Shown in pieces: positions 4,281-30,788 of a stretch of 64,000 nt of DNA. The notes under the pieces were generated by a model. The model was given only the letters and a program-made list of their open reading frames with translations. It ran no database searches and had not been told where the DNA came from. Origin of the DNA: Candidatus Aenigmatarchaeota archaeon (GTDB lineage: Archaea > Aenigmatarchaeota > Aenigmatarchaeia > QMZP01). Made by a program: the position numbers and the translations under genes. The stretch lies in the NCBI GenBank assembly GCA_030670085.1, contig DAOVCJ010000002.1, forward strand, positions 4,975 to 68,974. Direction: 5' to 3'. Within the stretch, counting starts at the first letter, position 1, and every line of letters starts with the position of its first letter.

Positions 4281-6398
4281 ATGGGTTACATCTTGATAAT
4301 ATCCGAGAAGCCGACTGCTGCCAAAAGGATAGCCCATGCCCTTTCAACCGGTGAGTTAAAGAAGCTCGGTAAAAAGGACGCTCCCTATTACAGGATAACC
4401 AGAAAGGGAAAGGATATTATGGTTGTCCCTGCTGTGGGGCACCTATTCGTTCTCGATGAGAAGGAGAAGGGCGCCAAATGGACGTATCCTGTTTTTTCAG
4501 TGGACTGGAAACCCACATTCCAGAAGAAGGAGAACCTATGGTCAAAGAAGTATTACCAGAACATAACCAGCCTTGCGAAAAAGGCGAATGAGTTCATTTC
4601 TGCATGCGATTATGATGTTGAGGGAAGCGTGATAGCGTACAACATACTGAGGTTTATTTGCGGTGTGAAAGATGGAAAACGAATGAAGTTCTCCACCCTC
4701 ACCCCACCGGACCTTGTGGAGGCGTATGAAAACGCTTCGCCACATCTGGACTTCCCGCAGATTGAAGCAGGAATCACAAGGCATTACATGGACTGGTATT
4801 TCGGGATAAACATGAGCAGGGCCCTTACACTGTCAGTGGAGCATGTGGGTGGTTTCTGGACCCTGTCAACCGGACGGGTTCAGGGCCCGACCCTGAATAT
4901 ACTAGAAGAAAGACAAAAAGAGATAATGAGATTCAAACCAGTCCCCTTCTGGCAGCTTGAGCTGCATGGCGTTCTTGATGGGAAGACTATTATAGCCCTT
5001 CACGAAAAAGACAAGTTCTGGAAAAAAGAGGAAGTAGAAAATGCAATGGAAAGATGTAAGGGCAAAGACGGGGTTGTTGACAAGGTTGAAAAAAGGGAGC
5101 ACAAACAATATCCACCGTTCCCATTCGACCTCACAACCCTGCAGAGGGAGTCCTACAACCATTTCGGCTACTCCCCCAAGCAGACCCTGGACATGGTTCA
5201 GGGACTCTACGAACATGCCCTGATATCCTACCCTAGAACATCTAGCCAGAAGCTTCCGGCAAAGATCGGTTACAAAAACATACTGAAAAAGCTGTCAGGC
5301 CAGAAAAGGTATGAAGAGTTGTGTGAAAAACTGCTGGGAAGGAAATTCCTAAGACCAAATGAGGGGAAGAAGGAGGATCCCGCGCACCCTGCAATATTCC
5401 CCACAGGGAACAAACCAAAGAGAATTAACCGATATCAAATGAAGGTTTACGACATGATTGTTAAAAGATTCCTTGCTGTCTTTGCTGATCCGGCGGTGAG
5501 GGAACAGGTAAGGGTGGAGATAAGGGTTGATGGTGAGATGTTTCTCGCGCATGGTATTAGGACTCTGAAATCAAACTGGATTGAGTTCTACAAGCCCTAC
5601 GCCATTTTCAAGGAGGAGATTCTCCCAGAGGTTTCAAAGGGCGACAAGGTTAAGGTTGATGAAATTCTGATGCTTGACAAGGAAACAGAACCCCCGAACA
5701 GATACAGCCAGGCATCGATTCTGAAGGAGATGGAGAACCTGAACCTGGGGACAAAGGCCACCAGAGCGCATATATTGCAAACGCTTTACGACAGGGGGTA
5801 TATAAGGGAGAGATCCATCCAGGTCACTGAGCTTGGCGAGGCTGTGGTTAGCGCATTGGGAAAATACTGCCCGGAAATCGTATCAGCGGATCTTACAAAG
5901 AAGTTCGAGAGTGATATGGAACTGGTTGAGAACGGTAAGAAGAAAAGGGCGGAGATTCTGGAGGATGTTGAGAAAGAGCTTGTCAAGATACTTTCCAATT
6001 TCAAGGAGCATGAGAAGCATATAGGTGAGGAGATACTTAAGGCGATAAAGGATTATGAAAGGGAGATTCACACCGTCGGGAAATGCGACAAGTGCGGCGG
6101 CGAACTCAGAATCATTCATTCCCACAGGACAGGCAAGAGATTCGTGGGCTGCTCCAGTTACCCGAAATGCACCAACTCGTTCCCACTGCCACAGCACGGT
6201 TATATTGAAGTCATATCTAGGAAATGTTCCAACTGCGGCCTGGGTCTAATCCAGGTTAAAGCAAAGGGAAAGAGACCCTGGAGGTTCTGCATAAAGTGCG
6301 GCTTCGAGAACAAGATCAAGAAAAAATCAGGCGGCAAGAAAAAAGAAGAGCTCAAGAAGGAACCTGAAAAAGACGTTAAAAAGAAAGAGGAGAAATAA
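4281..6398 (+). CDS. topA: Type IA DNA topoisomerase (archaeal TopA/Topo III-like) with C-terminal zinc ribbons
   Basis: N-terminal Toprim (ILIISEKPTAAKRIA, VPAVGHLF), a Topo IA core, and two C4 zinc-ribbon motifs (CDKCGG...CSSYPKC; CSNCG...CIKCG). K/E-rich tail. Confidence 0.85.
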   Translation: MGYILIISEKPTAAKRIAHALSTGELKKLGKKDAPYYRITRKGKDIMVVPAVGHLFVLDEKEKGAKWTYPVFSVDWKPTFQKKENLWSKKYYQNITSLAKKANEFISACDYDVEGSVIAYNILRFICGVKDGKRMKFSTLTPPDLVEAYENASPHLDFPQIEAGITRHYMDWYFGINMSRALTLSVEHVGGFWTLSTGRVQGPTLNILEERQKEIMRFKPVPFWQLELHGVLDGKTIIALHEKDKFWKKEEVENAMERCKGKDGVVDKVEKREHKQYPPFPFDLTTLQRESYNHFGYSPKQTLDMVQGLYEHALISYPRTSSQKLPAKIGYKNILKKLSGQKRYEELCEKLLGRKFLRPNEGKKEDPAHPAIFPTGNKPKRINRYQMKVYDMIVKRFLAVFADPAVREQVRVEIRVDGEMFLAHGIRTLKSNWIEFYKPYAIFKEEILPEVSKGDKVKVDEILMLDKETEPPNRYSQASILKEMENLNLGTKATRAHILQTLYDRGYIRERSIQVTELGEAVVSALGKYCPEIVSADLTKKFESDMELVENGKKKRAEILEDVEKELVKILSNFKEHEKHIGEEILKAIKDYEREIHTVGKCDKCGGELRIIHSHRTGKRFVGCSSYPKCTNSFPLPQHGYIEVISRKCSNCGLGLIQVKAKGKRPWRFCIKCGFENKIKKKSGGKKKEELKKEPEKDVKKKEEK

Positions 6399-6403
6399 TA
6401 ATT

Positions 6404-6787
6404 ATGGAAGAGGAAATCAGAAAGGAGGAACCCAGACCAGAAGAGAAAAAGGAAGAGCCAGAAGAAGCGAAAGAAGAAAAGAAAGAAGAGACCGAGGAAA
6501 AACCAAAGGAAGAAAAACCAAAAGAAATAGTGGAAAGGAAACCCTGGACAAGGTGGACGATGGAAGAGAGAAAAGAACACTTGAAGAAGAGGAGACATGG
6601 TCCAAGGGAAAGATGGTTTGTTCTGCTTTTCTTCTCAATCCTGTTCATTGTATTCCTATCAGCACTGTCCTATTCAATAGTTTACCAGATGGACCCATCC
6701 CTAATAGTAACACTGATTGCAGTCGTTGTTATAATATCCATAGTGGGTATTTTCTACACACAGAACATATGGTATAGAACAGAGTAA
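6404..6787 (+). CDS. Hypothetical protein with an E/K-rich N-terminus and a C-terminal transmembrane region
   Basis: ORF of 127 aa. Low-complexity EEK repeats are followed by two hydrophobic helices. No recognisable domain. Confidence 0.35.
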   Translation: MEEEIRKEEPRPEEKKEEPEEAKEEKKEETEEKPKEEKPKEIVERKPWTRWTMEERKEHLKKRRHGPRERWFVLLFFSILFIVFLSALSYSIVYQMDPSLIVTLIAVVVIISIVGIFYTQNIWYRTE

Positions 6788-8707: not shown

Positions 8708-9253
8708 TCACTTCTTTTTGGATTTTGCAGGCTGCCTCTTCTTCTTTGAAACCCCAACTGTCTTTCCCCCGCTTCCGGAACCTGTTCTCTGGCCGCGGAC
8801 GGGTAGACCAAGTATGTGCCTTACCCCTCTGTAGGATTTCAGTTTCTTCATTTCATTTATGTCCATTTTGTGGGCAAGCTCCAGCTTGGATACGCTCAGG
8901 TGCATGTCCCTGCCTGTTACAGGGTCCCTCTTCCTGTTGTAAAGCCAGGAAGGTATTCCAAACTTCTCGGGATTTAGTATAATCTCCTCTAATCCCTGCA
9001 TCTCCTGTTCTGAGAGCTCTCCAAGCTTCTTGTCACCAAACCCGGTCATTTTTGAAACAGCGTTGCTGAACATGAAAGACACACCCCTTATACTTCTTAT
9101 CGCTACCTTTACTGGTTTTCCACCATCAAGGTTGGTTTCAACCAGCCTTATGATATCCTGCACCCTCTTCTCCTTTTTCTCAGCCTCCTCGGGCTTCTTA
9201 CCTTTGGGAATTTCTTTCCCCTTCTCTGCATGGGCATGCTTTTTCTTTTCCAT
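8708..9253 (-). CDS. rps13: 30S ribosomal protein S13 (uS13) with a K/E-rich N-terminal extension
   Basis: S13 core IIRLVETNLDGGKPVKVAIRSIRGV, preceded by an N-terminal extension of about 28 aa. Confidence 0.88.
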   Translation of the reverse strand: MEKKKHAHAEKGKEIPKGKKPEEAEKKEKRVQDIIRLVETNLDGGKPVKVAIRSIRGVSFMFSNAVSKMTGFGDKKLGELSEQEMQGLEEIILNPEKFGIPSWLYNRKRDPVTGRDMHLSVSKLELAHKMDINEMKKLKSYRGVRHILGLPVRGQRTGSGSGGKTVGVSKKKRQPAKSKKK

Positions 9254-10876: not shown

Positions 10877-11015
10877 ACAATTTTATAGGATTTCTGGGTT
10901 TATCAATACCAAAAGCAAGCCCACAAAAACCGCTTTATTAACCCGGAATAAACTTAAATATATTATGAATACAGTATATAGTTAATAATCACGGGAAAGC
11001 AACCAAAGAGTGTAT

Positions 11016-11045
11016 GACGGCTTGGACATACTGGGTTAAGCCGTC
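11016..11045 (+). repeat. Hairpin element copy 3 (GACGGCTT-N14-AAGCCGTC) in the leader of the L4 operon
   Basis: Perfect 8-bp stem with a 14-nt loop. Lies 16 nt upstream of the rpl4 ATG and downstream of AT-rich TATA-like sequence around 10953-10983. Confidence 0.8.
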
Positions 11046-11859: not shown

Positions 11860-12177
11860 ATGGCAGAAAAAAAGAAGGAAGTGAAAAGAGAGAAGGAGAA
11901 AGCGACGGAAGCGAAACAGGATCCCTGGAAGGTCCTGATGTATCCCCAGCTTGCAGAGAAATCCATGAACATGGTGGAACTCGAGAACAAGCTGGTTTTC
12001 ATAGTTAATAAGAATGCGAAAAAAGAACAGATAAAGGAAGCTGTCGAAAAACAGTTCAATGTAAGGGTTATCAAGATAAATGTTGAGATAACAAGGAAGG
12101 GTGAGAAGAAGGCCTACGTAAAACTCCATCCGGATGATTCAGCAGCGGACATAGCCTCAAGGATGGGAATGTTATAA
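11860..12177 (+). CDS. rpl23: 50S ribosomal protein L23 (uL23)
   Basis: DPWKVLMYPQLAEKSM...KLVFIVNKNAKKEQIKEAVEKQFNVRV. Confidence 0.9.
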   Translation: MAEKKKEVKREKEKATEAKQDPWKVLMYPQLAEKSMNMVELENKLVFIVNKNAKKEQIKEAVEKQFNVRVIKINVEITRKGEKKAYVKLHPDDSAADIASRMGML

Positions 12178-14558: not shown

Positions 14559-14607
14559 CGTTTTAGAGATAAATTTAAATATAACCCATAAATAATAAAT
14601 CAAGCTT

Positions 14608-14817
14608 ATGGCTATTCTAAGATCCAAGGATATAAGGAAACTCAGTGAAAAGGAACTGGAAAAAAAGATGGATGAGCTGAGGTTGGAGCTTGCAAAGGAA
14701 AAGGCAAACATATCTATAGGCGCTTCGGTTACTTCTCCAGGCAGAATAAAGGAGATAAGAAAGACCATAGCAAGGATTCTAAGCGTGAAGAAGGAGAAAT
14801 CCAAAGGAGGAAGTTAA
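14608..14817 (+). CDS. rpl29: 50S ribosomal protein L29 (uL29)
   Basis: MAILRSKDIRKLSEKELEKKMDELRLELAKEKA. Confidence 0.85.
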   Translation: MAILRSKDIRKLSEKELEKKMDELRLELAKEKANISIGASVTSPGRIKEIRKTIARILSVKKEKSKGGS

Positions 14818-16378: not shown

Positions 16379-16882
16379 GTGAAGAAGGATTGGTCAAGGA
16401 ACTGGGTGAAGTCGGTGCAGCCGAGGAAGCAGAGGAAGTACAGACACAACGCTCCATTACATGTAAGGCATAAGTTTTTGTCCGCGAATCTTTCCCCAGA
16501 ACTGAGGAGGAGGTTCGAAAAGAGATCGATGCCGGTCAGGAAGGGAGACGAGGTAGAGGTCATGAGGGGATCTTCCAAGGGATTGAGGGGAACGGTCAAC
16601 AGGGTTGATGTGAAGAAATGCAGGATTTATGTTGAAGAGATCAAGGTGAAAAAAGTTGATGGTTCCGAGATTATGAAGTCACTTCAGCCATCAAATCTCA
16701 GAATAGTAAAACTCAGTCTCGATGACAAGATGAGGCAGAGGGTTTTTGAAAGGACAGAAGAGAAACCGAAGGAAGAAAAGCCCGAAAAAAAGGAGGAAAA
16801 GAAACCCAAAAAGAAAGAAGAAAAAAAGGAGAAGAAAAAGAAAGAAAAGAAAAAGGAAAGGAGAAAGAAGGAGAAAAAGTGA
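16379..16882 (+). CDS. rpl24: 50S ribosomal protein L24 (uL24), GTG start, with a K/E-rich C-terminal tail
   Basis: KOW motif (VRKGDEVEVMRGSSKGLRGTV). The GTG start sits directly after the L14 stop. Tail EKPKEEKPEKKEEKKPKKKEEKK. Confidence 0.8.
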   Translation: MKKDWSRNWVKSVQPRKQRKYRHNAPLHVRHKFLSANLSPELRRRFEKRSMPVRKGDEVEVMRGSSKGLRGTVNRVDVKKCRIYVEEIKVKKVDGSEIMKSLQPSNLRIVKLSLDDKMRQRVFERTEEKPKEEKPEKKEEKKPKKKEEKKEKKKKEKKKERRKKEKK

Positions 16883-25451: not shown

Positions 25452-26069
25452 TTATTTCTTTTTATCTTTACCCTTTTCTTTCGCTTCTGACTCAGCCTTC
25501 TCTAGGTCCTTGACACCCATCTTCTCTTCCACTGGCTTTTCTTCGGGCTTTTTCTCTTCCTTCTCTGGCTTTTCCTTCGGTTCCTTCTCTTCGGTTTTTA
25601 TTTCCTCTTCCTTTTCGGGCTTCTTCGGCTCCTCTGGTTTTTTCTCTTCAACTTTCTTCGGCTTTTCCTTCACTCCGAGCAGTTTACCAAGGGAATCCTT
25701 CCCGTACGTTGTTACCTTCACATTCACCTGGGATATCTCAGAGGATATTGTATTCCCTCTCACTGATTTTCTTTTTCTCTGCCCCCTCAGCTTGGGATGG
25801 AAGCCCGGTGGCATGGAGAGAAGAACCCCCTTTCTCGCGAGGCCTTCCACATCCCTTCGCATGGGAAACCCCTGCCTGTCAGAGCCACCTGTTATCTCCA
25901 GTTCGTAGCCTGCAAGACCAAGGGAATTCCCAGAAACATTGTCACCGATCTTCTTTCCTATAAGTCCTGTCTGTTTCTGGTCAATCTCCTTCTGGTATGC
26001 CTTCTTGCTCTTTGGGTCCGATATCACTAGCTTGAAGTTCATAAAATTCACCCCCAGTTCTATACGCAC
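25452..26069 (-). CDS. rps6e: 30S ribosomal protein S6e (eS6) with a K/E-rich C-terminal tail
   Basis: KLVISDPKSKKAYQKEID...LAGYELEITGGSDRQGFPMRRDV...RKRKSVRGNTIS. Confidence 0.85.
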   Translation of the reverse strand: MRIELGVNFMNFKLVISDPKSKKAYQKEIDQKQTGLIGKKIGDNVSGNSLGLAGYELEITGGSDRQGFPMRRDVEGLARKGVLLSMPPGFHPKLRGQRKRKSVRGNTISSEISQVNVKVTTYGKDSLGKLLGVKEKPKKVEEKKPEEPKKPEKEEEIKTEEKEPKEKPEKEEKKPEEKPVEEKMGVKDLEKAESEAKEKGKDKKK

Positions 26070-26566: not shown

Positions 26567-27922
26567 TTAAAGCCCGAACCAGAACAAGAAATTGATTATC
26601 AGGAGTGCGAGGGTCACGTAGCTGACTACGCTCATTATCTTCTTCCAATTCTTCTTGGCGATTTTCTTTACTACGATACCCCACATTCTTCCACCATCAA
26701 GGGGTCCGATTGGAAGAAGGTTGGCAGCACCCACACCGAAGTTTATAAGGAAGAGCCAGAACAGCAAACCCTGGATAAAGACAATCGGTCCTTCAAATCC
26801 CTCCAGACCCGGATTCAGTCCAACAAGGGTTGAAACACCACCTATCCCAATAAATCCAGGTCTTTTGTAATCACCAAGCTTTGACTCTAGGGTTAAAATC
26901 CTATCATCTGCTCTTTCTTCCAGTCCAGGGACGTTTTCCTTTACCCATCCCCACATGGATATCACATACTTTGTACTTGTCCAACCTTGTGGGTCACTGG
27001 TACCCATGAAGAAATCTATAGTCCCAATACCCCCACGTTCGTGTCCTGCGAGAAATGCGAAATACAGAGAGGGCTTGAAGACAGGGTCAGATTCCCCTGC
27101 TGTTGTCAGAACAAAGCTCTGCTTACTACTTTCGTTTTCTGTGAATATGGTTATGGTCTGGTTCTCTCCTATCTCCCCCAGTGTGCTCCTTAGATCGTAT
27201 ATATCCTTGATGGTGTAATCATTAATACCCACAATCGTTCCAGAGAGATTGACACCCTCTGCTGGGTATCCCTCTAGCAAACCAACATAGGTGACACCAC
27301 CGGAGTAAAACAATCCTGACATGGACGCGATAAGAAAGAGGGAGAGGCCAGCAAGCATGAAGTTAGCAAAGGAGCCGGAGGCAAATACCCTTAACTGGGA
27401 CAAGGCGGGTTTCTTTTCAAGCTGCTTCTCATCAGGCTCCACAAAGGCAAGGGGAATTATGATAAAGAGCCCCCAACCCATTGACTTTATTTTAATCTTT
27501 TCCATCGCTGCCATTATTCCATGCAGCCCCTCATGAACCACAACAAGAAGAGCGATTATGATTATCCAGTACCAGAAGGGAACGAGTATTGCTCCTGGAA
27601 CTATAACGGTTTCAGCCCCCAGCGCGGGCAGGACAAAGGAAATACCAGGAACGGTTTTCTCCACCAGAAAGTTGGTCCCTATGAGCTCCACCAAAAAGTA
27701 AACTATGTATATGGATATCATGAAACCGAATATAACCGCGACTATTCCGAGTCCCTTCCAGAAGCGCGGGAACCTCCTACCGAGATTTATGAGACCTTTT
27801 TTCCCTCTCTGCGTCCTCCTTATCAGAAGAATGGACTGCCTCTGAACATTCTTCCTGTCCTTGTAGAATATCACTGCCAGTATTACAATGAAAACCAGAA
27901 TCGAGATGGTATACCAGTCCAT
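26567..27922 (-). CDS. Site-2 protease (M50 family zinc metalloprotease) with a PDZ domain
   Basis: HExxH motif in a TM helix (VVHEGLHGIMAA), multiple TM helices, and a PDZ-like insert. Confidence 0.75.
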   Translation of the reverse strand: MDWYTISILVFIVILAVIFYKDRKNVQRQSILLIRRTQRGKKGLINLGRRFPRFWKGLGIVAVIFGFMISIYIVYFLVELIGTNFLVEKTVPGISFVLPALGAETVIVPGAILVPFWYWIIIIALLVVVHEGLHGIMAAMEKIKIKSMGWGLFIIIPLAFVEPDEKQLEKKPALSQLRVFASGSFANFMLAGLSLFLIASMSGLFYSGGVTYVGLLEGYPAEGVNLSGTIVGINDYTIKDIYDLRSTLGEIGENQTITIFTENESSKQSFVLTTAGESDPVFKPSLYFAFLAGHERGGIGTIDFFMGTSDPQGWTSTKYVISMWGWVKENVPGLEERADDRILTLESKLGDYKRPGFIGIGGVSTLVGLNPGLEGFEGPIVFIQGLLFWLFLINFGVGAANLLPIGPLDGGRMWGIVVKKIAKKNWKKIMSVVSYVTLALLIINFLFWFGL

Positions 27923-28014
27923 GGATTATAATTTGTCCCACTACCGATAAATATGTTTAAGAAACCTTGCGGTTTTAAACGAAGCGTTAAAAAACTTACT
28001 GCTAAGACAATGAA

Positions 28015-28668
28015 ATGAAAATACTAGGAAGGAGAGTATATTCCGTGGATCTTTCACCCGTTGTCAAAAACTCAATCAGGGTTAGCGTTGAACAGAAAGA
28101 TGGGGATTGTAAAAGGAAGATAGAACCATATTATGAATGCACGGAAAACTGTGACGGTCTCTTTATGTTTGCCGACTGTATATTTTCTGAAGAAAACCTT
28201 TCAGGAGAAGCATACATCTGGGCTAATGCCCTGACCAAGAAACGCGATTACATTGACCCGAGTCTTTTTTCTTTTTATGGTGTGGAAAGTTTCGAAGGAC
28301 TGGAAAAATTATATGAAGAATTAATGAAAAAAGGCGACAGATTCAAACTGGAGATAATACGCAAACCAGGAGATATAATATACAAGATAAACGGAGAAAT
28401 GGTAGCCAGGAAATCCGAATGTGGTCTGGTAAACGAAGAGCATGTCTTCAAGGGAGAGATCCTTGAAACCCTTGAGGCCATAGAAACAGATCTGCCTTAT
28501 TTTGTAAATAATAGTAGGAAGATGACACTCGAAGAGAAGATACGAGAGGTATCTGAGGTAGTCTTGGAAAAAACCGTAGCATGGGAAACAATAAAATACA
28601 TGTTCGAAGAAGACCAGGAGTTCATTTCAGCATTCGAGGAACACATGAGAAAAATAAGAAAAAACTAA
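28015..28668 (+). CDS. Hypothetical protein (217 aa)
   Basis: ORF only, with no recognisable motif. Confidence 0.3.
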   Translation: MKILGRRVYSVDLSPVVKNSIRVSVEQKDGDCKRKIEPYYECTENCDGLFMFADCIFSEENLSGEAYIWANALTKKRDYIDPSLFSFYGVESFEGLEKLYEELMKKGDRFKLEIIRKPGDIIYKINGEMVARKSECGLVNEEHVFKGEILETLEAIETDLPYFVNNSRKMTLEEKIREVSEVVLEKTVAWETIKYMFEEDQEFISAFEEHMRKIRKN

Positions 28669-28704
28669 CAACCCAAGTCCGACCCGTTTCTAATCTCAAT
28701 TAAC

Positions 28705-29151
28705 TTATCCATGGTCCTTAACTTCTTGACACTTTACTAGAAGCCTCGATGTTTTCACCTTAACCTCCTCAAACTTTACTAAAAACCTAGATGTTGTCTG
28801 GATGTCGTTTTTTTCATATGCTTTAAGCGCCCTAGCTAAAAGTGAATGAGAATATTCATTTGAATATTCTAATAAAAAAGAAGGCAGTACTTCATTGTTT
28901 CCTGAAAAATCCTCAAAAGCCTTTTCATAAATTTCTATACGCAGATCCATTAGAGAATCCGGGAATTCCCTGGCTGGTTTCTCTCCTACCCTTTCCTTCA
29001 ATTCCCTGTCCTTTCTCAATGCTATTTCTGCCTTTAATTTCAATATGTTCCATTTTCTGCCTATATTTTTGTAATTCGGATTTTCTTCTTCAAGTAATTT
29101 CCTAATGGTCCTGAAATACGATTTCTCTCCCAAACCTTCGTACTCACTCAT
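28705..29151 (-). CDS. Hypothetical protein (148 aa) with a C-terminal internal duplication
   Basis: TSRFLVKFEEVKVK / TSRLLVKCQEVK, from a tandem DNA duplication of about 30 nt at 28710-28800. Confidence 0.3.
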   Translation of the reverse strand: MSEYEGLGEKSYFRTIRKLLEEENPNYKNIGRKWNILKLKAEIALRKDRELKERVGEKPAREFPDSLMDLRIEIYEKAFEDFSGNNEVLPSFLLEYSNEYSHSLLARALKAYEKNDIQTTSRFLVKFEEVKVKTSRLLVKCQEVKDHG

Positions 29152-29299
29152 AATAACACCTAAATACCACCAATAAGTGATTAATAATAATGTTTATAAA
29201 CGTTGCGTTGAGCTCAGAATCCAAGTTTCGAGTGGCTGTTGTTTTTGGATCAGGGATTGTTTTAAAAATCAGCAAGTTGTATATTAGATAAGGAGTTTT

Positions 29300-29557
29300 A
29301 TGGAAGAAGAAAAGAAAAATGAAGTGGAAGAAGAAGAGAAAGAAGAAACAGAAGAAGAAAAAAAGGAAGAAGAGAAAGAAGAAGTGAAAAAAGATAGTGA
29401 GAAGGAACAGGAAAAGGACAGATTCGGAAGAACACTGTACACTGCAACGTGTTCTGATTGCGGAAAAGAGACAAAGGTCCCCTTCAAGCCGTCAGGAGAC
29501 AAACCTGTCTATTGCATGGAATGTTACCAAAAGCACAGACCGAAGAGAAGCTTTTAA
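29300..29557 (+). CDS. Small acidic protein with a C-terminal CxxC...CxxC zinc ribbon
   Basis: E/K-rich N-terminus, then CSDCGKETKVPFKPSGDKPVYCMECY. Confidence 0.4.
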   Translation: MEEEKKNEVEEEEKEETEEEKKEEEKEEVKKDSEKEQEKDRFGRTLYTATCSDCGKETKVPFKPSGDKPVYCMECYQKHRPKRSF

Positions 29558-29690
29558 TCTATTTGATATAGCGGTCTTTGATTCTTTGTTCTGATTTTCC
29601 TAGTTTTTACACTAAGGTTGTTTTTTGGTTCAGGAATCTCCATTGTTTAAAAGCCGGGGAGACAATAATTAGATTAAAGGAGGGATAAAA

Positions 29691-29936
29691 ATGATGACAG
29701 TTTTTGAGGAGATAAAGAAGCAGACCCTGACCTTAATGACAGCGGCTCTAGCTTTCGTTGCAGCGCTTATCTGGAAAGATGCGATATCCGCATGGCTGGC
29801 ACCATTGTACGGGAGTGCAGAGGGTGCATCGAGCCTTACGATAGCAGCCCTTGTAGTGACAGTGGTTGTTGTTATAGTAACCATAGTGCTGGCAAAACTA
29901 CTCGCACCAAAGGAAGCAAAAGAGGCATCCAAATAG
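29691..29936 (+). CDS. Small membrane protein (81 aa)
   Basis: Hydrophobic helices. Preceded by AAGGAGGG. Confidence 0.35.
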   Translation: MMTVFEEIKKQTLTLMTAALAFVAALIWKDAISAWLAPLYGSAEGASSLTIAALVVTVVVVIVTIVLAKLLAPKEAKEASK

Positions 29937-30078
29937 TAAAAAACATCTGAAGCGATTAATGCAGAATTCTGATAGTTCTGGTTACGATGCCCATAGAATT
30001 CGAATCAGGAAAAGGACTCAAAACATATTTAATTCAGAGAAACAAATAATACTTAATAATTTTTGATTCGGAGGTGGA

Positions 30079-30480
30079 TTGATGACGAAGAAGGCCAAAA
30101 AGACAGAAGCCAAGAAAGCAGAGAAAAAGGAAAAGCCAAAAGAAACGAAGGAAAGGTTCGCATTCCCAGAGGCGTGTATTGTAAGGATAATGAGGAAGCA
30201 CCTGGACAAGGAGAAGATGATAAAGAAGGACGTCAAGGTAGGGATGAACAAGTGGCTCGAGAAAGTTTGCTCGAACGTCGCGAAAACCATGAACAAGTTC
30301 CCCTACGTTATGATGACGAAGAGCGAGTTCAGCAGGGGAATAAAGGTTTATGAGACACTAGAAGAGTTCGATAAAGAGAAAGAAAGGATACTCGCTCATA
30401 TGGATGCAATGAAAAAGGACATAGAGAAACTCGAAAGGGATTTGGGCAAGACAGAGCAGGAAGTTCTGGAGATGAGTTAA
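30079..30480 (+). CDS. Histone-fold-like protein with an N-terminal Lys-rich tail and a C-terminal coiled-coil extension
   Basis: Tail MTKKAKKTEAKKAEKKEKPKETKE. The core FPEACIVRIMRKHL...KDVKVGMNKWLEKVCSNVAKTM aligns with HMfB/NF-YB helices 1 and 2 (LPIAPIGRIIK ... IASEAIKLA). This is pattern-level evidence only. Confidence 0.4.
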   Translation: MMTKKAKKTEAKKAEKKEKPKETKERFAFPEACIVRIMRKHLDKEKMIKKDVKVGMNKWLEKVCSNVAKTMNKFPYVMMTKSEFSRGIKVYETLEEFDKEKERILAHMDAMKKDIEKLERDLGKTEQEVLEMS

Positions 30481-30542
30481 ACCTCCTGGTTCTTTTAAAA
30501 TAAATAAAAACCATTTTACTATACCTAAGTATATAAGCGTAT

Positions 30543-30572
30543 GACGGCTTGACCATATCGGATTAAGCCGTC
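30543..30572 (+). repeat. Hairpin element copy 9 (GACGGCTT-N14-AAGCCGTC) in the tRNA 5' leader
   Basis: Perfect 8-bp stem with a 14-nt loop. Flanked by AAGCGTAT, as is copy 10. The AT-rich stretch ttttactatacctaagtatataag (30514-30537) just upstream may be the promoter. Confidence 0.8.
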
Positions 30573-30584
30573 TCTCAAAGGATC

Positions 30585-30788
30585 GCGGGGGTACCCAAGC
30601 GGTCAAAGCGTATGACGGCTTAAACAGATTGGATAAAGCCGTCTGTGACTAAAGGGGCTAGCCTAAGGAGCTAGTGGCTTAGAACCCTTTTCGTTCCAAA
30701 CACACAAAAGCGTTCGTGGAAAAGAAAGGGTGAGTAATGCCTTCCTGGGTTCGAACCTCGAAAACGAGCGAAAATCCCAGCCCCCGCA
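30585..30788 (+). tRNA. Putative class-II (Leu/Ser-like) tRNA gene with multiple non-canonical introns; anticodon unresolved
   Basis: 7 of 7 acceptor pairing GCGGGGG (30585-91) / CCCCCGC (30781-87) plus discriminator A. D-arm TACCCAAGCGGTCAAAG. T-arm CTGGG-TTCGAAC-[19-nt insert with CTCGaaaaCGAG]-CCCAG. Hairpin copy 10 (30614-30643) interrupts the D region. The 204 nt minus about 120 nt of inserts gives the size of a class-II tRNA. Candidate anticodon loops are CTTAGAA (UAG) at 30678-84 or CTAAGGA at 30663-69. Confidence 0.55.
30614..30643 (+). repeat. Hairpin element copy 10 (GACGGCTT-N14-AAGCCGTC) inside the putative tRNA (intron-like)
   Basis: Same flanks as copy 9, which lies 71 nt upstream. 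Loop aaacagattggata. Confidence 0.75.

Follow-up and report, generated by a model that had tools for sequence, protein, structure and literature searches.

Prokaryotic histones have been sorted into 17 groups by Schwab et al. 2024 (PMC11390915). One of these groups, the coiled-coil (CC) histones, is defined there by a histone fold followed by a long C-terminal helix, and is distributed among Aenigmatarchaeota, other DPANN phyla and Methanobacteriota. CC histones are predicted to form a homotetramer in which two dimers stand back to back, joined by a coiled-coil bundle of their C-terminal helices, and four residues of the alpha1 face, R32, K35, R45 and K49, are proposed to bind DNA. Highly negatively charged disordered tails are common in the group but not obligatory, HMfC of Methanothermus fervidus having none, and the acidic tails have been proposed to act as an intramolecular inhibitor. 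HMfC, the sole CC histone assayed, bridges DNA in vitro and binds heparin, and the CC histone of Methanobrevibacter smithii shows low expression (PMC11390915). In a 2026 preprint, the "HMfC histone (coiled-coil histone)" counts among the standard families of chromatin proteins.

We analysed a gene near the middle of a 64-kb stretch (64,000 nt, hereafter the window) from a Candidatus Aenigmatarchaeota archaeon. An earlier, sequence-only reading had described its product as a histone-fold-like protein with a eukaryote-like Lys-rich N-terminal tail and a C-terminal coiled coil. The open reading frame is present at 30079-30480 (+) as given in that reading. Its listed start is the TTG at 30079, and the ATG at 30082 is the likely start because of the spacing of a Shine-Dalgarno-like motif and because the identical 132-aa protein in public collections (P0001) begins MTKK (Table 1). 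The 27 codons of the tail include no ATG, GTG or TTG, and as the first Met after them, M37, is already part of alpha1, a complete fold can be made only if the tail is translated. The T-rich stretch that follows the stop codon is plausibly an archaeal termination region.

Table 1. Coordinates of the features discussed, in window numbering.
Feature	Position	Strand	Basis or remark
Shine-Dalgarno-like GGAGGTG	30070-30076	+	Read from sequence; 5 nt before ATG 30082
CDS of the 132-aa CC histone, including TAA stop 30478-30480	30082-30480	+	ORF, identical protein P0001, homologues
N-terminal disordered Lys-rich tail, aa 1-27, MTKKAKKTEAKKAEKKEKPKETKERFA	30082-30162	+	pLDDT, composition, 120 homologues
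Histone fold, aa 28-86	30163-30339	+	PF00808, AlphaFold2 model, Foldseek, residue conservation
alpha4, aa 88-131, presumed coiled-coil tetramerisation module	30343-30474	+	AlphaFold2 helix, heptads, invariant columns
T-rich stretch 3' of the stop, TTCTTTTAAAATAAATAAAAACCATTTT	30481-30520	+	Read from sequence; 98% conserved in close relative L002
tRNA-Leu-like gene	30585-30788	+	Some 105 nt 3' of the histone stop codon
Hairpin copy	11012-11045	+	5' leader of the uL4 gene, 15 nt ahead of its ATG
Hairpin copy	30539-30572	+	Just upstream of the tRNA-Leu-like gene
Hairpin copy	30610-30643	+	Inside the D-loop insertion of the tRNA-Leu-like gene
Topoisomerase I	4281-6398		K/E-rich tail, C-terminal
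127-aa protein without Pfam domain	6404-6787		K/E-rich tail, N-terminal, acidic
uS13	8708-9253		K/E-rich tail, N-terminal
uL23	11860-12177		K/E-rich tail, N-terminal
uL24	16529-16882		K/E-rich tail, C-terminal, very basic
eS6	25452-26042		K/E-rich tail, C-terminal
PF23477 treble-clef zinc-finger protein	29300-29557		K/E-rich tail, N-terminal, very acidic

The histone fold was supported by three lines of evidence. The Pfam model PF00808 (CBFD_NFYB_HMF) matched residues 28-68 with 22.0 bits (cut-off 21.4, E 2e-4), a match that is marginal taken alone and that covers profile positions 3-42 of 65, corresponding to alpha1-L1-alpha2 only; the same model was matched by 66 of the 67 aligned homologues, with a best E-value of 2.2e-6. 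A single-chain AlphaFold2 model built from the 67-sequence alignment displayed alpha1 (residues 30-40), L1 (41-48), alpha2 (49-70), L2 (71-79) and alpha3 (80-86), followed by a long C-terminal helix, alpha4 (88-131), with a mean pLDDT of 77, values of 86-90 across residues 31-120 and values below 50 for residues 1-21. When this model was compared with the PDB by Foldseek, all 50 matches listed were histone-fold chains (H2A, H2B, H3, NF-YB/HapC, NF-YC, CHRAC, Dpb4), with a probability of about 1.0 for the best matches and, for several, an rmsd of 1.3-1.8 A over 64-67 columns. Taken together, these results confirm the histone fold, as modelled, well beyond chance. Direct sequence searches returned little: NCBIfam gave nothing useful, and searches of PDB sequences gave marginal matches only, to NF-YB and to MarR. 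The MarR match (E 0.04) was dismissed, since Pfam and the structural comparison both point to a histone fold.

The fold departs from that of the archaeal histones HMfA and HMfB in its second half. The alpha1-L1-alpha2 half is recognisably homologous, R35 aligning with HMfB R10 and R38 with K13. Over the whole sequence, the resemblance to HMfA/HMfB is very weak, with phmmer E-values of about 6-10. In the model, alpha2 counts 22 residues and is thus shorter than in nucleosomal histones, and L2 and alpha3 are divergent: L2 reads NKFPYVMMT, with N71, P74 and Y75 invariant, and does not carry an RKT motif. Relative to HMfA/HMfB, the protein has also gained alpha4 and the tail, and we found no evidence in it for a hypernucleosome interface of the HMfA/HMfB type.

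The C-terminal coiled coil proposed in the sequence-only reading was borne out by the model and by a heptad repeat. A single helix of 44 residues, alpha4 is predicted with pLDDT values of about 86-90 up to residue ~120, and in the best heptad register 11 of its 13 a/d positions are hydrophobic, F96, I103, M107, M110, I114, L117 and L121 among them. It is also the most conserved part of the protein, holding 9 of the 25 columns that are invariant across the 67 sequences (K100, R102, I103, H106, K111, D113, I114, L117 and D120), and F96, L121 and G122 are very strongly conserved as well. The charged residues of the helix (K100, R102, H106, K111, D113, R119 and D120) are unusually conserved, which could point to a specific partner as opposed to simple self-association. 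Among 120 homologues the charge of alpha4 is roughly neutral. The C-terminal tail counts only 9 residues, with a net charge of -3.

Homology searches placed the protein in a described family. A search of 5.8 billion proteins returned 172 homologues at E <= 0.01, of which those with an organism name came mostly from Aenigmatarchaeota MAGs. A profile of the tail-less Aenigmatarchaeota core (profile A2), searched against 1.84 billion cluster representatives, recovered 109 of them at E <= 1e-3, mostly 100-180 aa long, and most matches cover profile positions ~2-100, that is, the histone fold and alpha4 together. Among them is P0136 (E 2.6e-22, profile positions 3-102), whose cluster includes WP_295001401.1 from an uncultured Methanobrevibacter. 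P0136 bears acidic N- and C-terminal tails, in line with the description of the M. smithii protein A5UK87, and BLASTP aligned it to the query over 109 aa without gaps (39% identity, E 1e-25). The published cloning primer of HMfC encodes MEEKLPFA, which fits the alpha1-entry consensus of the family, E-K-L-P-F-[AP], in the only eight residues compared. The tie to the assayed HMfC runs through the Methanobrevibacter homologues and through the published list of taxa.

We conclude, from the fold, alpha4, the homology with Methanobrevibacter proteins, the HMfC primer motif and the spacing of the basic residues described below, that the protein belongs to the CC histones, whose 2024 description already reported them from Aenigmatarchaeota (PMC11390915). 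It shares with HMfC (Mfer_0945 / E3GZL0) and A5UK87 the fold, the long heptad C-terminal helix and the spacing of basic residues on the alpha1 face, and with the family its disordered charged tails and its presence in Aenigmatarchaeota. It differs from them in the tail, which has a net charge of +7 here, as opposed to the highly negative charge that is the common state and to the tailless HMfC. The sequence-only reading had taken the protein for a tailed variant of the ordinary 65-70-aa archaeal histone; instead, it belongs to a separate family, to which it is homologous end to end.

Two other groups of histones resemble it in architecture. The Methanococcales (Mc) histone MJ1647 is alike in concept, with a C-terminal tetramerisation extension, back-to-back dimers and DNA bridging, features that in the protein studied here are predicted. 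It differs in that no similarity was detected (the PDB sequence searches gave no such match), in the restriction of Mc histones to Methanococcales and in its shorter extension, a 28-residue tail. RdgC histones (Halobacteria, Bacillus) likewise combine a histone fold with a long C-terminal helix and a predicted tetrameric bundle. According to the account of Schwab et al., their genes stand at the head of an operon that also encodes an RdgC-like protein and a transmembrane protein, whereas the downstream neighbours here are a tRNA-Leu-like gene and, in convergent orientation, a gene for a PHP-domain protein, and RdgC and CC histones share only 15-20% identity.

The disordered Lys-rich tail that stands directly before alpha1 raises the possibility that an archaeal histone of the nucleosomal, DNA-wrapping kind has here gained a eukaryote-like tail, which would make it an analogue or precursor of the tailed histones of eukaryotes, as proposed for some Heimdallarchaeota histones. 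The histone fold itself fits this view, and tailed archaeal histones are known (PMC6136690). Several features of the protein argue against it. Its 22-residue alpha2 recalls the short alpha2 that Schwab et al. describe for non-nucleosomal groups, L2 lacks the RKT motif, and the similarity to HMfB stops mid-alpha2, both in hhalign (E 0.065 over 42 columns) and in the span of the PF00808 match. A 44-residue alpha4 placed on alpha3 would, moreover, be expected to fill the face on which dimers meet in a four-helix bundle. Added to the end-to-end homology with CC histones and to a tail that is not conserved and is acidic in 81 of 120 homologues, these observations leave a DNA-wrapping histone very improbable.

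Public records offer a different name for the family. Some homologues are annotated as "histone H3/H4", "histone-like protein" or "NFYB/HAP3 family transcription factor subunit", the last being the automatic NCBI name of P0002 and P0071, and on this basis the protein might belong to a transcription factor with sequence specificity, as its NF-YB/HAP3-like subunit. PF00808 is indeed a model shared by NF-YB and archaeal histones, and the best PDB matches, by sequence and by fold, are NF-YB and HapC. The sequence matches to NF-YB-type chains reach E-values of only 0.06-0.5, and the name derives from a family label, not from a function. We regard the public labels on close homologues, be it NFYB/HAP3 or "hypothetical protein", as uninformative; the NFYB/HAP3 name was transferred from the Pfam/NCBIfam family label. 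The extra feature that defines the protein, alpha4, is a trait of CC histones. A second histone-fold gene that could encode an NF-YC-like partner was sought with HMfA, HMfB and the query as phmmer queries, and none was found in the six-frame ORFs of the window or of 47 related loci (373 kb); the weak phmmer match at 14599-14814 has a sequence that resembles ribosomal protein uL29. NF-YA-type partners are, to our knowledge, eukaryotic. We therefore give a role as an NF-YB-type subunit very little credence.

The alpha1/L1 face of the protein is basic, with R35, R38, K45, K48, K49 and K52. R35 and K52 never vary, and K or R stands at position 38, and likewise at position 48, in 67/67 sequences. 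The spacing of residues 35/38/48/52 is that of the published R32/K35/R45/K49, a mapping made by spacing alone. The histone-fold part is net positive in 120/120 homologues, ranging from +2 to +8 with a median of +6. These data bear on a further alternative, in which the histone fold and the coiled coil would form a scaffold for protein contacts and have no affinity for DNA, for instance as an adaptor of some other conserved cellular machine, with tails that tune solubility or partner binding. Some minor groups of prokaryotic histones seem, according to Schwab et al., to have lost DNA binding, and the weak expression reported for the M. smithii CC histone could be read in the same way. The mostly strongly acidic tails of the family are odd for a DNA binder, and the many invariant charged residues of alpha4 could mean a specific partner. 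Such a scaffold is at odds with basic residues that are invariant or conservatively K/R on the alpha1/L1 face, with the uniformly positive fold and with HMfC, the one member tested in the published account, which binds heparin and bridges DNA; we consider it quite unlikely.

The protein is instead likely to be a non-nucleosomal chromatin protein, a CC histone that dimerises, tetramerises through alpha4 and bridges DNA, with a tail that adds DNA affinity. By analogy with the CC family, two chains would form a handshake dimer through their histone folds, and the basic alpha1/L1 face of this dimer (R35, K/R38, K/R48 and K52, together with K45 and K49) would bind one DNA duplex. The alpha4 helices of two dimers would then pack into a four-helix coiled coil, yielding a tetramer whose two DNA faces point apart, so that two duplexes would be bridged and DNA would not be wrapped. 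The N-terminal tail is predicted to emerge directly before alpha1, beside the DNA-binding face. From its Lys-rich charge and its adjacency to alpha1, we infer that the basic tail may add non-specific electrostatic affinity for DNA and would exert no inhibition. The acidic tails of most relatives may occlude the alpha1 face, following the proposal of Schwab et al.

The tail itself (aa 1-27) holds 12 K/R and 5 E, giving the net charge of +7, and is an alternating K/E/A sequence of low complexity (KKAKK, AKKAEKK). Its disorder and its Lys-rich composition, both part of the sequence-only reading, are supported, the model giving residues 1-21 pLDDT values below 50. The term "eukaryote-like" could not be upheld beyond this basic and disordered character, since neither the length, the sequence nor the sign of the charge is conserved. 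When the segment preceding the F-P motif was compared in 120 homologues, it ranged from 12 to 77 aa (median 32) and from +13 to -28 in net charge, with 81 acidic, 36 basic and 3 neutral tails. The two subclades closest to the query (44 sequences, query included) have a median tail charge of +2, the other sizeable clades medians of -9 to -16, and identity to the query in the core correlates with tail charge (Spearman rho 0.63, p 2e-14); tail charge follows phylogeny, subclade by subclade. Isolated basic tails exist outside the subclades of the query too, such as that of P0089 at +13. The tails of the query subclade share a loose common start, M-x-[EK]-K-A-K-K, and by inspection contain no H3/H4 tail motifs. 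By inspection, the tail resembles H1- or HupB-type AKK/PKK tails more than it does H3/H4 tails. It is like the tails of Asgard tailed histones and of eukaryotic H3/H4 in being a disordered Lys-rich extension directly before alpha1, and differs from them in being carried by a non-nucleosomal histone and in having a sequence and charge that are not conserved among orthologues.

The possibility that the tail reflects a compositional bias of the lineage, raised in the same reading, was addressed by inspecting the other proteins of the window. K/E-rich terminal tails are present on 8 of 79 crude ORFs (longest non-overlapping; about 70 of the 79 seem to be genuine genes), the histone included, and the seven others, which carry tails of both charge signs, are listed in Table 1. 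Such tails are a habit of the lineage, and in this respect the caveat stands; the sign of their charge is specific to the protein and not genome-wide, and in this respect it does not.

A scan of one genome per GTDB species recovered 47 loci of the gene, all of them from Aenigmatarchaeota MAGs or from archaeal MAGs that bear another phylum label or none. The conserved order is OB-fold protein, eS6, M50 protease (-), CC histone (+), PHP-domain protein (-), UPP synthase and EF-1alpha, with the M50 protease as a neighbour in 43/47 loci. In the present genome, four extra small genes are found between the M50 and histone genes: two have no Pfam match, one encodes the PF23477 zinc-finger protein and one a DUF5654 membrane protein. 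A functional operon was rejected because the neighbours are housekeeping genes on mixed strands, and for this reason we read the synteny as vertical inheritance on a conserved chromosomal backbone. The CC histone gene, syntenic in 47 species genomes, seems to belong to the core chromatin genes of the reduced-genome Aenigmatarchaeota.

Downstream of the histone gene lies a tRNA-Leu-like gene (Table 1). ARAGORN at default settings reported no tRNA in the 64-kb window, and Rfam returned nothing. The gene was compared with the intact tRNA-Leu genes that ARAGORN detects 3' of the CC-histone gene at three of the related loci, L016 (aag), L036 (tag) and L035 (gag). It displays a GCGGGGG/CCCCCGC acceptor stem, an anticodon loop CTAAGGA with the anticodon AAG (A34) and, once an insert is removed, a perfect T-arm, CTGGG-TTCGAAT-CCCAG. 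An A34 in a tRNA is unusual for archaea. Relative to the intact genes, it is interrupted by three insertions at non-canonical positions: the D-loop has gained ~46 nt, the variable arm ~52 nt and the T-loop 19 nt. In the corresponding gene of L002 the T-loop insert is the same, and those of the D-loop and the variable arm are shorter. Judging from the sequence, these inserts may be spliced introns or may mark a decaying gene.

A 34-nt hairpin element, GTATGACGGCTT-N14-AAGCCGTC, is present in three copies in the window, with 0 expected by chance (Table 1). It is missing from the homologous positions in L002, which is why we read it as inserted or mobile, and among the 47 related loci one similar copy was observed, in L011 only. 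Small and palindromic, it may otherwise be a hairpin to which a protein binds.

Two further observations concern relatives outside the window. The A2 profile search recovered P0123, a 276-aa natural tandem doublet of CC histones with a short linker and a 60-aa acidic tail. In its AlphaFold2 model both units, each a histone fold plus helix, are helical, and Foldseek matched single histone folds only. Doublets are known for other histone groups, and we found none described for CC histones in the available parts of Schwab et al. 2024 (PMC11390915). Separately, a 2.8-kb contig (L001, DAOVFD010000117.1) that is 99-100% identical at the protein level to window positions ~27600-30470 was deposited as "Candidatus Micrarchaeota archaeon". 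The other listed relatives with an organism name are Aenigmatarchaeota, save stray "Nanoarchaeota" and "Deltaproteobacteria" labels, and the odd phylum labels are probably binning or taxonomy-label errors in public records.

In conclusion, our analysis does not support the reading of this protein as a eukaryote-like tailed histone, and it would correct the public annotation of its close homologues to CC histone, of the bridging type by family. The Lys-rich tail, which appears to change fast and to be confined to one lineage, has no demonstrable link with the tails of eukaryotic histones. What is modestly new is the lability of the tail charge, from +13 to -28, and the existence of a basic-tailed subclade within Aenigmatarchaeota, the 2024 description having stressed acidic tails. 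We can conceive, as a rather doubtful proposition, that one subclade converted an ancestral acidic and possibly auto-inhibitory tail into a Lys-rich tail of the M-x-[EK]-K-A-K-K type. If adaptive, this change would mean that a DNA-bridging histone acquired a basic histone tail independently; if true, the basic tail would raise DNA affinity constitutively or in a manner switchable by lysine acetylation, and in the latter case it would constitute a DPANN analogue of tail-based chromatin regulation. The range of tail charges offers a natural series of variants with which to test the published idea that the tails of CC histones tune DNA binding.
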